A stretch of 9,349 bases of DNA, taken from the NCBI RefSeq assembly GCF_003334315.1, contig NZ_QOWR01000090.1, one strand, 5' to 3'. Below, one piece after another: positions 1,111 to 4,850 of the stretch (within the stretch, counting starts at the first letter, position 1; the number at the start of each line of letters is the position of its first letter). Source of the stretch: Escherichia coli. GTDB taxonomy: Bacteria; Pseudomonadota; Gammaproteobacteria; Enterobacterales; Enterobacteriaceae. Made by a program: the position numbers and the translations under genes. Below the pieces are notes generated by a model. It made no database searches and was not told the DNA's origin. It saw only the letters and a list, made by a program, of their open reading frames with translations.

Positions 1111-1200
1111 TGTGGCACAGGGTAGAGCTAGCGTGGTTGTCCGCTTTGTGCCAAGAGCAGACGCTGGTAATTCGTGCCTAATATACTTCACTTAACTTAT
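1111..1200. repeat. Copy A of an imperfect direct repeat (core GTCCGCTTTGTGCCAAGAGCAGAC, about 1138-1170); copy B lies at about 4790-4845
   Basis: By-eye alignment: ~32 bp core at roughly 75-80% identity between copies, with weaker similarity extending upstream (TTGACA / TTGGCA) and downstream (TAACTTAT in both). Confidence 0.4.
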
Positions 1201-1404
1201 ATCCCAGCTTTGATACAGATCATACAAATTAAATGCCCCAGTAATTGGCAGGCTGAGTAACTTAAAACTCCTTAGAATATAGGATGATTTGTATCGGCAC
1301 TCATTCCACCATGCATTCCGATTAACCCCGCATAGCCAGTTGAACTTTGCTACTCTGTGAGAGGTAGTACCTTCTATCCAGTGCGGATTTAATTAATGGA
1401 ATAA

Positions 1405-3408
1405 ATGATTATGAGTGAAAATGATACAACCCCAAAGAAGTCTACAAGCCAGATTAACAAAGCGGTATTCTTTACATCTGCTTTGCTAATTTTCCTTCTT
1501 GTCGCCTTTGCCGCCGTATTCCCGGATGTCGCCGACAAAAATTTTAAACTACTTCAGCAACAAATCTTCACGAATGCCAGCTGGTTCTACATACTTGCTG
1601 TGGCCCTGATTTTACTGAGCGTCACGTTCCTTGGACTCTCACGTTACGGTGATATAAAGCTGGGCCCAGACCATGCGCAGCCTGATTTCAGCTACCATTC
1701 CTGGTTCGCGATGCTTTTTTCGGCAGGGATGGGGATCGGCCTGATGTTCTTTGGCGTTGCCGAACCTGTGATGCATTATCTTTCGCCACCTGTCGGCACT
1801 CCAGAGACCGTTGCGGCAGCGAAGGAAGCCATGCGCCTGACGTTCTTCCACTGGGGTCTGCACGCATGGGCAATTTATGCCATCGTGGCGCTGATTCTGG
1901 CCTTTTTCAGTTACCGTCACGGTCTGCCTTTAACGCTGCGTTCTGCGCTCTATCCCATTATCGGCGATCGCATTTACGGGCCTATAGGCCACGCGGTTGA
2001 TATCTTCGCCGTGATAGGCACTGTCTTTGGCGTTGCAACATCGCTGGGTTACGGTGTATTGCAGGTGAATGCCGGTTTGAACCATCTTTTCGGCGTGCCC
2101 ATCAATGAAACGGTACAGGTCATTTTGATCGTGGTCATCACGGGGTTAGCGACGATTTCGGTGGTGTCCGGCCTGGACAAGGGAATACGCATCCTGTCTG
2201 AGCTTAATCTGGGCCTGGCGGTGTTGCTCCTGGCGCTGGTCTTGTGCCTGGGTCCCACTGTGCTTCTGCTGAAGTCATTTGTGGAAAATACGGGTGGTTA
2301 TCTGTCGGAACTGGTGAGTAAAACGTTCAACCTTTACGCGTATGAACCCAAGTCGAGCAACTGGCTGGGGGGCTGGACATTATTATACTGGGGATGGTGG
2401 CTTTCATGGTCGCCGTTTGTAGGTATGTTCATTGCACGCGTTTCCCGCGGCAGGACAATTCGTGAGTTCGTGACTGGCGTGTTGTTTGTTCCCGCCGGCT
2501 TTACGCTCATGTGGATGACGGTGTTTGGAAACAGCGCCATCTATCTCATCATGAACCAGGGCGCCACTGACCTCGCCAATACCGTTCAGCAGGATGTTGC
2601 GCTTGCCCTGTTTAATTTCCTGGAGCATTTCCCGTTCTCTTCCGTGCTGTCATTCATTGCAATGGCGATGGTCATCGTCTTCTTTGTAACGTCTGCTGAT
2701 TCGGGGGCAATGGTTGTGGATACTCTGGCATCAGGTGGGGTGGCAAACACGCCCGTCTGGCAGCGAATTTTCTGGGCATCGCTCATGGGCGTTGTTGCTA
2801 TTGCCCTGCTGATCGCAGGGGGGCTGAGTGCGTTGCAAACCGTAACGATAGCGAGTGCATTGCCCTTCTCAGTTATCTTATTAATATCCATATACGGACT
2901 GTTAAAAGCCCTGCGTCGGGATTTGACCAAGCGTGAAAGCCTTAGCATGGCGACTATTGCTCCTACGGCTGCACGTAACCCAATTCCCTGGCAGAGAAGG
3001 TTACGCAATATCGCGTATTTGCCGAAGCGCTCTCTTGTGAAACGTTTTATGGACGACATTATCCAACCCGCCATGACGCTGGTTCAGGAGGAACTTAACA
3101 AGCAGGGAACGATAAGCCACATCAGTGACGCCGCCGAGGATCGTATTCGCCTTGAAGTCGATTTGGGCAACGAGCTGAATTATATATATGAAGTGAGGCT
3201 TCGCGGGTATAACTCACCGACCTTCGCGCTCGCTGCGCTGGATAATGATGAGCAGCAGAGTGAACAACATCGATATTATCGCGCTGAAGTCTATCTCAAA
3301 GAGGGCGGCCAAAATTATGATGTAATGGGCTGGAATCAGGAACAGCTGATTAATGACATACTGGACCAGTACGAAAAACACCTGCACTTCCTGCATCTGG
3401 TTCGTTAA
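1405..3408 (+). CDS. BCCT family transporter (betaine/carnitine/choline type), BetT-like with long cytoplasmic C-terminal extension
   Basis: 667-codon ORF with multiple hydrophobic segments and the BCCT signature WTLLYWGWWLSWSPFVGMFIARVSRGRTIREF; overall collinear with E. coli BetT as recalled. Start could be ATG 1405 or ATG 1411; SD is weak. Confidence 0.9.
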   Translation: MIMSENDTTPKKSTSQINKAVFFTSALLIFLLVAFAAVFPDVADKNFKLLQQQIFTNASWFYILAVALILLSVTFLGLSRYGDIKLGPDHAQPDFSYHSWFAMLFSAGMGIGLMFFGVAEPVMHYLSPPVGTPETVAAAKEAMRLTFFHWGLHAWAIYAIVALILAFFSYRHGLPLTLRSALYPIIGDRIYGPIGHAVDIFAVIGTVFGVATSLGYGVLQVNAGLNHLFGVPINETVQVILIVVITGLATISVVSGLDKGIRILSELNLGLAVLLLALVLCLGPTVLLLKSFVENTGGYLSELVSKTFNLYAYEPKSSNWLGGWTLLYWGWWLSWSPFVGMFIARVSRGRTIREFVTGVLFVPAGFTLMWMTVFGNSAIYLIMNQGATDLANTVQQDVALALFNFLEHFPFSSVLSFIAMAMVIVFFVTSADSGAMVVDTLASGGVANTPVWQRIFWASLMGVVAIALLIAGGLSALQTVTIASALPFSVILLISIYGLLKALRRDLTKRESLSMATIAPTAARNPIPWQRRLRNIAYLPKRSLVKRFMDDIIQPAMTLVQEELNKQGTISHISDAAEDRIRLEVDLGNELNYIYEVRLRGYNSPTFALAALDNDEQQSEQHRYYRAEVYLKEGGQNYDVMGWNQEQLINDILDQYEKHLHFLHLVR

Positions 3409-3415
3409 CAGCAAC

Positions 3416-3444
3416 ATGCCGCCACAGAGGCGGCATTTATTTAT
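3416..3444 (+). terminator. Rho-independent terminator downstream of the BCCT transporter gene
   Basis: Stem ATGCCGCC (3416-3423), loop ACAGA, stem GGCGGCAT (3429-3436), followed by TTATTTAT. Confidence 0.65.
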
Positions 3445-3471
3445 CCCGGCTGCAATATGAGGGAATGCAGA

Positions 3472-4749
3472 ATGATTTCACGCTGGAAATGGATGCTGAA
3501 GCAGACATTTAAAAAACTATGGTTCAGGGCAACGTTATTCGCAATTGTCGCAATAATAACGGCCCTTTTATCAATTCTTTTTAAATCAATGATACCTGAG
3601 TCGGTTTCCGTGAAGGTTGGTGCGGAAGCAGTCGATAACATTCTGAACATACTGGCATCGAGTATGCTGGCAGTGACCACATTTTCGCTGAGCATCATGG
3701 TCACAGCCTACGGTTCAGCCACTACTAATGTGACTCCCAGAGCTACTCGTTTAGTTGTTGAAGACGTCACCACACAAAATGTACTGGCCACCTTCATCGG
3801 TTCTTTTCTCTTCAGTCTGGTAGGGATTATTGCCCTCAATATGGGAGCTTATGGAGAAAGGGGGAGAGTCATTTTATTCATTGTAACACTGGTTGTCATT
3901 GCCTTAATCCTCATCACATTGCTTCGCTGGATACAGCATTTGACCTCTCTGGGGAGGGTTGGTGAGACAACGGCAAAAGTAGAACAGGCGGCCATCGAAA
4001 CATTTATTGCGAGAGCAAGAAATCCCTGTCTCGGCGGATATCCATGGCTTGAGAACAATGAACAGCCGAAAGGAACGGTTGCAGTTTATCCGAAAAAGAT
4101 TGGCTATGTTGAATATGTTGATATGGTGAAACTCAGCAAGCTGCTGACCAATGATCCCCGTCATGTATACCTCGTGGCGCAGCCGGGCAGTTTCATACAT
4201 CCGTCCACGCCAGTTTTGTACCTGAGTCAGGGCCAGGAGTCATCAATCAGCACCGATTTACTTGAGACGATTATTGTCTCGGATGTACGTTCATTTGCTC
4301 AGGACCCCCGATTTTGTCTTAGCGTCATGGCCGAAATAGCCTGCCGAGCCCTTTCCCCCGCAGTGAACGATCCTGGAACCGCCATTGATGTCATTGGCAG
4401 AGGTGTACGTATACTTTCCGCTTACGCGCAGAATAAATCTGATGAAATAGAAGTGAAATATCCTTCTGTACATGTTGCACCACTTCAGAATAACGATCTA
4501 CTTGAAGACTTTTTCTCACCTGTTGCGCGCGATGGTGCCAGTATGAGGGAAATTCAGATAAGGGTACTTAAAGGACTGTCGATGCTGAGTAAGGGTTGGC
4601 CTGGAATTTTTGCTGAAGCCGCACAAACCCTAGCATTTGAAACATTAGAGCATGCTACTCGTGCTGACCATATAGATTCTGACAGATATCTAATAAAATC
4701 AATTTATTATAATTTATTTAGTGGCGAAGATTCTAATAAAAAACCATAG
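3472..4749 (+). CDS. DUF2254-family integral membrane protein (function unknown)
   Basis: About four N-terminal hydrophobic helices followed by a soluble domain containing the SPAVNDPGTA and DPRF motifs I associate with DUF2254 (from memory). Start placed at ATG 3472 (SD GAGGGAA 3459-3465, 6-nt spacer) rather than the in-frame ATG at 3457 given in the ORF track. Confidence 0.8.
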   Translation: MISRWKWMLKQTFKKLWFRATLFAIVAIITALLSILFKSMIPESVSVKVGAEAVDNILNILASSMLAVTTFSLSIMVTAYGSATTNVTPRATRLVVEDVTTQNVLATFIGSFLFSLVGIIALNMGAYGERGRVILFIVTLVVIALILITLLRWIQHLTSLGRVGETTAKVEQAAIETFIARARNPCLGGYPWLENNEQPKGTVAVYPKKIGYVEYVDMVKLSKLLTNDPRHVYLVAQPGSFIHPSTPVLYLSQGQESSISTDLLETIIVSDVRSFAQDPRFCLSVMAEIACRALSPAVNDPGTAIDVIGRGVRILSAYAQNKSDEIEVKYPSVHVAPLQNNDLLEDFFSPVARDGASMREIQIRVLKGLSMLSKGWPGIFAEAAQTLAFETLEHATRADHIDSDRYLIKSIYYNLFSGEDSNKKP

Positions 4750-4774
4750 TTGCGGAGCAAGCGATACGGTTGTT

Positions 4775-4850
4775 GGCAAGTCAAGGGCAAAGCATTCGCG
4801 TGAGAGTGGGCGTCTGCTTTGTGCCAGAAGCGGACATACGTAACTTATGA
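4775..4850. repeat. Copy B of the imperfect direct repeat (core GTCTGCTTTGTGCCAGAAGCGGAC, about 4811-4836)
   Basis: See copy A. Lies in the convergent intergenic region between the DUF2254 gene and the LysR gene. Confidence 0.4.

Follow-up and report, generated by a model that had tools for sequence, protein, structure and literature searches.

We analysed a stretch of 9,349 nucleotides from Escherichia coli (NCBI RefSeq assembly GCF_003334315.1, contig NZ_QOWR01000090.1), called the window here, in which a BCCT (BetT-like) transporter gene and a DUF2254 membrane protein gene lie between two imperfect direct repeats, R1 and R2. The window corresponds to the ren-ninB cargo hotspot in a lambdoid prophage of the Rac type in E. 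coli. Its sequence is found at 100% identity on E. coli chromosomes, 283 of 5426 complete E. coli genomes have 80% of it or more, and in an annotated E. coli genome (L001) the locus belongs to a Rac-type lambdoid prophage adjoining ttcA. From left to right the window contains a phage replication initiator, a Ren-like/DUF977 gene, R1, the BCCT and DUF2254 genes, R2, a group of LysR, gamma-glutamylcyclotransferase and MFS genes, a third repeat copy R3, hok/sok and a NinB/Orf-like gene (Table 1). R1, R2 and R3 partition the ren-ninB cargo into two cassettes, R1-R2 and R2-R3. Sequence comparison supports the view that the BCCT/DUF2254 pair is a discrete mobile cassette of 3.7 kb ending exactly at R1 and R2, because homology of 99.8-99.9% in an element resembling an integrative and conjugative element (ICE) and in plasmids starts and ends at the repeats.

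Repeats, sites and cassettes

A repeat search returned 1130-1162 and 4803-4835 as a direct repeat of 33 nt with 79% identity (26/33), and only one direct repeat in the window is longer. The 24-nt cores, GTCCGCTTTGTGCCAAGAGCAGAC in R1 (1139-1162) and GTCTGCTTTGTGCCAGAAGCGGAC in R2 (4812-4835), are identical at 20 of 24 positions and differ at 4. A degenerate pattern allowing up to 3 mismatches had 3 matches in the window and none in 200 dinucleotide-preserving shuffles, confirming that two real direct repeats flank the gene pair, as had been proposed in the first-pass annotation of this DNA. The coordinates given there, 1138-1170 and 4811-4836, were right to within a few bases, although the left segment had been drawn about 8 nt too long, the similarity ending at 1162-1165. 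Two features had been missed, namely the third copy R3 (GTCCGCTTTGAGCGAGGAGCGGAC, 7878-7901 on the - strand, between the MFS gene and hok/sok) and the near-palindromic nature of each copy, because of which R1 and R2 score as an inverted pair too. The site can be written as a 9-6-9 palindrome, GTCYGCTTT-GNGCNA-RRAGCRGAC, or as an 11-6-11 layout once the frequent AT/AT flanks are included. Sites with the centre GTGCCA (R1 and R2) will be called type A, and those with the centre GAGCGA (R3) type B.

About 25 nt outside R1, TGGCACAG (1113-1120) is the reverse complement of site positions 8-15. A sites of the kind found in phage P2 (see below) share a TGGCACAG-like layout, with GGCACAGAG facing CTCTGTGCC (for instance at 67-75 of locus L244), and B sites have only a weak equivalent. 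This motif outside the A sites may be an accessory half-site or an alternative pairing.

The possibility that the repeats are a duplicated small RNA or regulatory element, also raised in the first-pass annotation, was not borne out. The window has 16 terminator-like sites, all of them away from R1-R3, and the sequences following R1-R3 (GCTGG, ATACG and CAAAC) contain no T run. R1 and R2 form weak folds (-2.9 to -5.2 kcal/mol, z-scores of -1.2 to +0.6), no better than those of shuffled sequences, and over the site family the arms show no covariation. The sole Rfam match at E <= 1 was sok at 8149-8387 (strong on the + strand and weak on the - strand), with none at R1-R3. A sigma-54 or sigma-70 promoter in the TGGCAC motifs was considered and rejected, as the spacing is unfit and the promoter scan calls none there.

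Outside the window, homology to the BCCT-DUF2254 pair stops at the same points. An ICE-like element adjoining tRNA-Ser (L247) carries window positions 1139-4835 at 99.87% identity, and one plasmid (L003) carries 1138-4837 at 99.81%. Altogether 68 plasmids of E. coli, Klebsiella, Enterobacter, Salmonella and Shigella contain the cassette at 99% identity or more, the matches listed spanning either 1138-4837 or 1138-4835 of the window. About 1000 E. coli genomes have a 94% allele in an island rich in insertion sequences (IS); homology at the DUF2254 end stops at 4831-4837, with the 94% allele ending at 4831, inside a degenerate R2. An Enterobacter prophage holds an 88.6% copy of the gene pair that still ends at R2. 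Viral contigs present the same lambdoid backbone and BCCT cassette followed by different second cassettes, and six contexts share the left part of R2 and differ in its right arm and flank. The two plasmids examined in detail (L003 and L256) have one qnrS1-linked context in common, a fragment of a Qin-like prophage with three sites; in the qnrS1 region prophage cassettes ride on resistance plasmids. The order of this region is ISKpn19, recombinase, relB, A site, BCCT-DUF2254, A site, hypothetical-integrase-hypothetical, B site and IS26.

The BCCT-DUF2254 pairing also occurs in Enterobacter, Lelliottia and Leclercia. On the chromosomes of Lelliottia and Leclercia the pair has no sites, its proteins are 73-77% identical to those of the window and nucleotide similarity is confined to the coding region; judged from these sequences, it looks like a native operon and the source of the cassette. 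Genes without repeats had been named beforehand as evidence against a repeat-bounded insertion, and the Lelliottia and Leclercia pairs fit that description, yet they are orthologues of only 73-77% identity that resemble a native operon.

In prophages and phages with other cargo, similarity to the window breaks off within the repeats. A query running from DUF977 to BCCT matched 4243 of the 5426 E. coli genomes, and most matches ended at query positions 522-524, equivalent to window 1161-1163 (the last base of R1). The backbone match to the isolated phages Tritos, 204576 and Evi ends at the same base, window 1162, and on the hok side matches to other prophages start at 7878-7887, inside R3. In a sister Rac-type prophage (L002) the same two sites enclose genes for TetR, adenosine deaminase, a non-canonical nucleoside triphosphate pyrophosphatase and SIR2 (cargo at 6651-9724), and this TetR/adenosine deaminase/SIR2 cargo may be a defence-type cassette. 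In the Qin prophage of E. coli K-12, A and B sites (L248, 5002-5025 and 5993-6016) bracket flxA near relBE-hokD; the annotated ydfV open reading frame (ORF) crosses the A site there, and its 3' part lies between A and B together with flxA. In phage P2 an A site at 15335-15358 (GTCCACTCTGTGCCAAAAGCGGAC) and a B site at 17432-17455 are placed around fun(Z). Two backbones prevail among the viral loci listed, the lambdoid one (on its ren and hok sides) and that of P2, in the gap from the tail-fibre assembly gene G to the sheath gene FI.

Scans seeded with GTCYGCTTTGNGCNANNAGCRGAC, a pattern that fixes most arm positions, found the site in at least 120 viral and at least 120 species-genome stretches, with a chance expectation of about 2 matches in the species-genome collection as estimated from pattern degeneracy and collection size. 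Adjacent sites in the 120 viral loci listed follow a simple grammar: 58 pairs are convergent (A...B) and enclose 0.6-5.8 kb of cargo, 11 are direct (A...A), 10 are back-to-back B/A junctions with a fixed start-to-start distance of 39-42 nt, and other arrangements are few. We distinguished 75 cassettes of 329-9450 bp (median 1.6 kb) encoding 105 protein clusters. They carry 1-10 genes in either orientation, presumably with promoters of their own, and 12 of 20 sampled cargo proteins matched PADLOC defence models, among them Shedu, a retron reverse transcriptase, PD-T7-1, MADS and several PDC candidates. The earlier suggestion of a cassette-like insertion is upheld as far as the gene pair is a discrete mobile unit ending at the repeats. 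The repeats themselves are not the duplication or att scar of this one insertion, given that they belong to a large family of sites which bounds many unrelated cassettes, the R2-R3 cassette included. Likewise, the element is widespread, as a ubiquitous repeat unrelated to the gene pair would be, but it delimits the pair wherever the near-identical cassette occurs.

Copy number in E. coli is low: at least one site was detected in 3838 of 5426 genomes, the median is 1, and no genome has more than 7 detected. Every copy whose surroundings were seen lay in a prophage, a plasmid, an ICE-like element or an island. The same 24-mer exists beyond the Enterobacterales, in Hyphomicrobiales, Rhizobium, Caulobacter, Azospirillum, Nitrosospira, Alteromonadales and others, where junctions lying between ordinary genes are often made up of 2-3 units that have further centres (GGGTCA, ACCCCCG, GCGCCA). 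A Hyphomicrobiales metagenome-assembled genome (MAG), OFTM377, has, at junctions between genes, three tandem units with the same stem and the centres GGGTCA, ACCCCCG and GTGCCA (L129, L135, L136, L141), all in direct orientation and separated by linkers of about 21 nt, and the cargo there includes cyclase/TPR regulators and a PBP4-like protein.

Junctions, proposed exchange and alternatives

The position of the junctions was examined by comparing about 490 distinct sites. In 610 site pairs that have the same outer flank and different inner flanks, positions 1-15 differ in 0-7% of pairs, and positions 16, 17 and 21 differ in 55%, 64% and 42%, respectively. The 16 pairs with the same inner flank present the mirror image of this pattern. 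The lambdoid B backbone flank, represented by 24 sites joined to 19 cargoes, has a single outer-arm variant and 16 inner-arm variants; the P2 B backbone flank (21 sites, 17 cargoes) has 2 and 12, and the flank 3' of DUF2254 (7 sites, 7 cargoes) has 2 and 6. As judged from aligned flanks, the outer arm goes with the backbone and the inner arm with the cargo, and for this reason the junctions are placed in the 6-bp centre of the site. These comparisons support site-specific recombination at the repeats, with junctions apparently confined to the site centre.

The three copies in the window can be read in the same way. The arms borne by the BCCT-DUF2254 cassette are the inner arm of R1, AGAGCAGAC, and the outer arm of R2, GTCTGCTTT, and the inner arm of R2 goes with the next cassette. 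The cassette-side arm of R1 has A21 and that of R2 has T4, so that the two, when joined, form a fully paired site, and the other two arms do likewise (C4-G21). This complementarity is what would remain after a site on the cassette and one on the backbone had recombined reciprocally. Over the whole family the arms vary independently (odds ratio of 1.1 and p = 0.70 for positions 4-21, with 8-17 and 9-16 borderline), a pattern more in keeping with a pair of half-sites bound by protein on duplex DNA than with a folded strand. A strand bias of G-T over A-C mismatches (337 versus 112) was discarded as evidence, since the seed pattern fixes T at positions 8-9.

On balance, we think it probable that R1, R2 and R3 are core-type recombination sites of a trans-acting recombinase and that they delimit exchangeable cargo cassettes in mobile-element hotspots. 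The reaction that we infer is conservative site-specific recombination on double-stranded DNA, with a circular intermediate and a trans-acting recombinase that is not encoded beside the sites. The ren-ninB hotspot in the window has an A site (GTGCCA) at its left edge and an inverted B site (GAGCGA) at its right edge. The 3.7-kb BCCT-DUF2254 cassette would most likely have entered as a circle with one A site, which would have recombined reciprocally with the resident A site inside the 6-bp centre. The outcome would be two direct A copies with hybrid arms, R1 consisting of a backbone arm and a cassette arm, and R2 of a cassette arm and an arm of the next cassette. When phages, plasmids and ICEs reside in the same cell, exchange of like with like (A with A, B with B) would then insert, delete or swap cassettes, much as recombinase-mediated cassette exchange does where two heterospecific sites, here A and B, are used.

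Conservation of the site across bacterial classes hints at a conserved trans-acting protein. Perhaps, and here we are more tentative, the sites belong to an uncharacterised conservative system acting in trans, with A and B as heterospecific sites in addition to further centre types, that shuttles defence and accessory cassettes among P2-like and lambdoid phages, ICEs, plasmids and the chromosomes of Alpha- and Betaproteobacteria. The same site sequence would be found across classes because the recombinase is host-encoded or widely shared. If this possible but somewhat doubtful extension were true, the system would stand as a naturally occurring counterpart to recombinase-mediated cassette exchange, and would resemble an integron system without a linked integrase.

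Several observations weigh against the recombination-site interpretation. In P2, lambdoid prophages, the ICE-like element, the plasmid and the 120 listed genomic loci, no recombinase gene was found to accompany the sites consistently, and the recurrent ORF clusters at these genomic loci belong to LysR, SDR, NtrC-type regulator, ABC, PQQ and kinase families only. In Alphaproteobacteria and Betaproteobacteria the sites are chromosomal, of high local density and with extra loop types, and look more like repetitive extragenic palindromic (REP) sequences. The seed pattern fixes most arm positions, so the cleanest comparison of the two arms is position 4 versus position 21 (1% versus 42%), and the site pairs are phylogenetically non-independent. 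The T4/A21 complementarity in the window would arise from arm frequencies alone with a probability of about 0.05. The first-pass annotation had proposed a search for empty sites, and the 5426 complete E. coli genomes contain no arrangement of DUF977, GTCCGCTTT-GTGCCA-site and LysR that lacks the gene pair. A synthetic query representing the fused single left/right site found none in the same genomes, only strain A20, in which a remnant of 240 bp separates the left and right sites, and no excised form of the cassette was found.

Some of these points would suit an explanation by short homology, in which the palindrome is conserved for another function (for instance to bind a protein of the host or phage, or to insulate the cargo from phage transcription) and the 24-30 bp of shared sequence serve RecA, RecET or Red, or template switching at the tip of the palindrome. 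The boundary sequences of lambdoid phages and the promoter early stem-loops (PeSLs) of T4-type phages are comparable. Besides the missing linked recombinase, this explanation is favoured by the RecE/RecT proteins which Rac-type prophages encode according to annotation, by the NinB/Orf mediator beside the hotspot, and by the fact that template switching at a palindrome likewise puts junctions near its centre. Rousset et al. also prefer homologous exchange for the P2/P4 hotspots (PMC9122126). However, crossovers by short homology should fall anywhere in the 24-30 bp, yet the outer arm keeps its flank in 93-100% of pairs at each position and the inner arm does not. Switching driven by a hairpin is difficult to reconcile with R1 and R2 barely folding and with arms that do not covary, and a purely structural role leaves unexplained both the near-identical sequence in Alpha-, Beta- and Gammaproteobacteria and the two centre types in a fixed convergent arrangement. 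We regard this explanation as unlikely, though it is the alternative that fares best.

We consider it quite improbable that the sites are selfish repeats like REP or bacterial interspersed mosaic elements (BIMEs), moved in trans by a REP-associated tyrosine transposase (RAYT) or another transposase, the look of cassettes being a by-product of landing at gene boundaries. Such repeats would account for the many copies per genome in the Hyphomicrobiales MAG, Nitrosospira and others, for the occurrence of 2-3 units together, alike in stem but not in loop, between ordinary genes of the chromosome, and for chromosomal BCCT-DUF2254 orthologues without sites. They would not account for the low copy number and exclusively mobile-element contexts in E. 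coli, for a 3.7-kb unit that moves with half-sites at its ends, or for one backbone half-site joined to 19 cargo half-sites. Moreover, neither a Y1/HUH nor a RAYT transposase is found among the recurrent neighbours in the genome fragments examined. Taken as sequence evidence, the restriction of joints to the centre, together with the movement of a 3.7-kb unit that has a half-site at each end, would argue against both the short-homology and the REP explanations. Finally, it is hardly credible that the R1/R2 similarity is due to chance or to a local feature, for example a regulatory site or small RNA duplicated for this gene pair, which would be favoured by the raw similarity of the two segments only, against the matches exceeding those of the shuffles, hundreds of homologous copies elsewhere, and the want of an Rfam match at E <= 1 or a promoter or terminator call at the sites.

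How defence and accessory genes enter and leave phage and island hotspots is an open question, and a study of the P2/P4 hotspots defers the recombination pathway to future work (PMC9122126). The interpretation of R1-R3 as recombination sites bears on this question, as a single searchable pair of 24-bp sites links the lambdoid ren-ninB gap, the P2-like Z/fun gap, an ICE-like element and a qnrS1 plasmid region. With joints in the 6-bp centre, the hotspot becomes a testable recombination reaction, a marker for new cassettes and a handle on the enzyme. The site would also explain the presence of an osmolyte-transporter operon in a prophage and on resistance plasmids.

Other features of the window

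The gene identities proposed in the first-pass annotation for BCCT and DUF2254 agree with the NCBIfam BetT model and with RefSeq annotation and PF10011, respectively (Table 1). The second cassette (4880-7661, - strand) is bounded by the inner arms of R2 and R3. None of the ORFs called in the window is an integrase gene, the nearest being the prophage IntR, about 10 kb upstream.

Table 1. Genes, sites and flanks in the 9,349-nt window
Feature	Position	Strand	Remarks
Phage replication initiator gene	50-607		Upstream of the Ren-like gene
Ren-like/DUF977 gene	648-1070	+	Last left-hand backbone gene before the cargo; RefSeq annotation; phrog_142, Ren-like exclusion protein, E = 4.7e-45
R1 outer flank, backbone-linked	1071-1138	+	Conserved with the backbone in prophages with other cargo
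R1, type A	1139-1162	+	Outer arm 1139-1147, centre GTGCCA 1148-1153, inner arm 1154-1162 AGAGCAGAC
BCCT (BetT-like) transporter gene	1405-3408	+	Cassette 1 cargo; NCBIfam NF007399 (BetT subfamily), 752 bits, cut-off 695
DUF2254 membrane protein gene	3457-4749	+	Cassette 1 cargo; RefSeq annotation; PF10011 in homologues
R2, type A	4812-4835	+	Direct relative to R1; outer arm 4812-4820 GTCTGCTTT, centre GTGCCA 4821-4826, inner arm 4827-4835 (GAAGCGGAC)
LysR regulator	4880-5761	-	Cassette 2 cargo
Gamma-glutamylcyclotransferase	5758-6450	-	Cassette 2 cargo
MFS transporter	6462-7661	-	Cassette 2 cargo
R3, type B	7878-7901	-	On the + strand: inner arm 7878-7886, centre 7887-7892, outer arm 7893-7901
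Right-hand backbone	7902-8537	+	Conserved R3 outer flank, then hok/sok
NinB/Orf-like recombination-mediator gene	9006-9275		phrog_319; interrupted by IS2-like end

Within the replication-initiator ORF there is a direct repeat of 36 nt (101-136 and 197-232, 75% identity, 96 nt apart), which may represent origin iterons as in lambdoid O genes. Between BCCT and DUF2254 lies a perfect G+C-rich hairpin of 8 bp (3416-3436), called as a terminator on both strands, with a clear T-rich tail on the + strand only. The hok/sok type I toxin-antitoxin system stands directly to the right of the cargo hotspot, with sok (RF01794, 116 bits) at 8213-8387 and the Hok ORF at 8325-8537. The window is closed by an IS2-like left end (TAGACTGGCCCCCTGAATCTCCAGACA..., 9273-9349), and matches to other genomes end at 9272.

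In many genomes with the prophage of the window, an IS100 copy interrupts DUF2254 and the MFS gene carries a frameshift (L001, 16267-18068 and 20344-21542). This suggests that the cargo of this prophage is decaying in some lineages.

Comparison with known systems

Integron cassettes resemble those described here in being discrete, in having imperfect palindromes at their ends, in forming arrays, and in needing no adjacent integrase, as in clusters of attC sites lacking integron-integrases (CALINs). A circular single-site intermediate, as in integrons, is a natural source of direct repeats with hybrid halves. However, the sites in the window have no intI, attI or cassette promoter (Pc) nearby, and their boundaries read ...GTCYGCTTTGNGCNARRAGCRGAC-ATT without the GTTRRRY/RYYYAAC boxes of attC. 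It is the sequence that is conserved in our sites and the structure in attC, the arms here showing no covariation and R1 and R2 folding weakly. Unlike integron cassettes, these are bounded by two site types that converge on the cargo, and they hold 1-10 genes in either orientation.

The pdif modules of Acinetobacter plasmids are bounded by XerC/XerD sites of about 28 bp with an 11-6-11 layout and alternating orientation; they contain no recombinase, they are shared among replicons, and the action of a host recombinase on them has been inferred. The modules in the window, which also hold no recombinase gene and recur on other replicons, are likewise bounded by inverse sites, and many copies have the 11-6-11 layout ATGTCCGCTTT-GTGCCA-AAAGCGGACAT. 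The arms GTCCGCTTT and AAAGCGGAC, on the other hand, look unlike the dif arms GGTGCGCATAA and TTATGTTAAAT when compared by eye, and the two arms of our sites resemble each other, in contrast to the separate XerC and XerD arms of dif. A likeness to dif, loxP, gix/hix and the shufflon sfx site was considered. The sfx spacer, GTGCCAA, resembles the A centre but is flanked by different arms, and we treated this as coincidence.

With REP and BIME elements the sites have in common that they are short intergenic palindromes, that units with the same stem occur in clusters, and that copy number is high in some alphaproteobacterial and betaproteobacterial genomes. They differ in that the E. coli sites are low-copy and bound to mobile elements, the sequence is the same across classes, half-sites segregate with the cargo, and no RAYT was seen among the recurrent neighbours. 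A paper on conserved miniature inverted-repeat transposable elements does not mention the motif. Morons are accessory genes between conserved phage modules, defined by a promoter and a terminator. The cassettes resemble morons and PeSL-bounded genes in being accessory genes between phage modules with short conserved motifs at mosaic joints, but the sites in the window are neither promoter nor terminator, and the joints lie in a 6-bp centre and not in a stretch of homology.

The inverted repeats in the Z/fun region of P2 were reportedly described by Nilsson, Karlsson and Haggard-Ljungquist (2004, Mol Biol Evol 21:1), who are said to have proposed site-specific recombination and exchange with bacterial genomes. 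In GenBank AJ512681 (P2-EC48) an annotated 'left inverted repeat' ends in the site, GTCCGCTATGTGCCAAAAGCGGAA. A passage in a review (PMC8987985), which cites Nilsson et al. 2004, states that the inverted repeats flanking fun in P2 enable its site-specific exchange. The literature, searched both for sequence strings and by topic, gave no description of the site beyond citations of Nilsson 2004, the texts of Nilsson 2004 and Odegrip 2006 not being covered. In the searchable literature we did not find the two centre types, the array grammar, the central joints, or the presence of sites in an ICE-like element, plasmids, Alphaproteobacteria and Betaproteobacteria, which may or may not be new. The P2 repeats and the window have the same site sequence, the convergent A...B arrangement around variable cargo, and a conserved phage backbone outside. 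They differ in the hotspot, which is the lambdoid ren-ninB gap in the window and the tail-fibre/sheath gap in P2, in the outer flanks apart from a shared stretch of about 45 nt, and in the two direct A sites that surround one cassette in the window. By its sequence, the window locus is of the same kind as the P2 Z/fun repeats, in a different phage family and hotspot.

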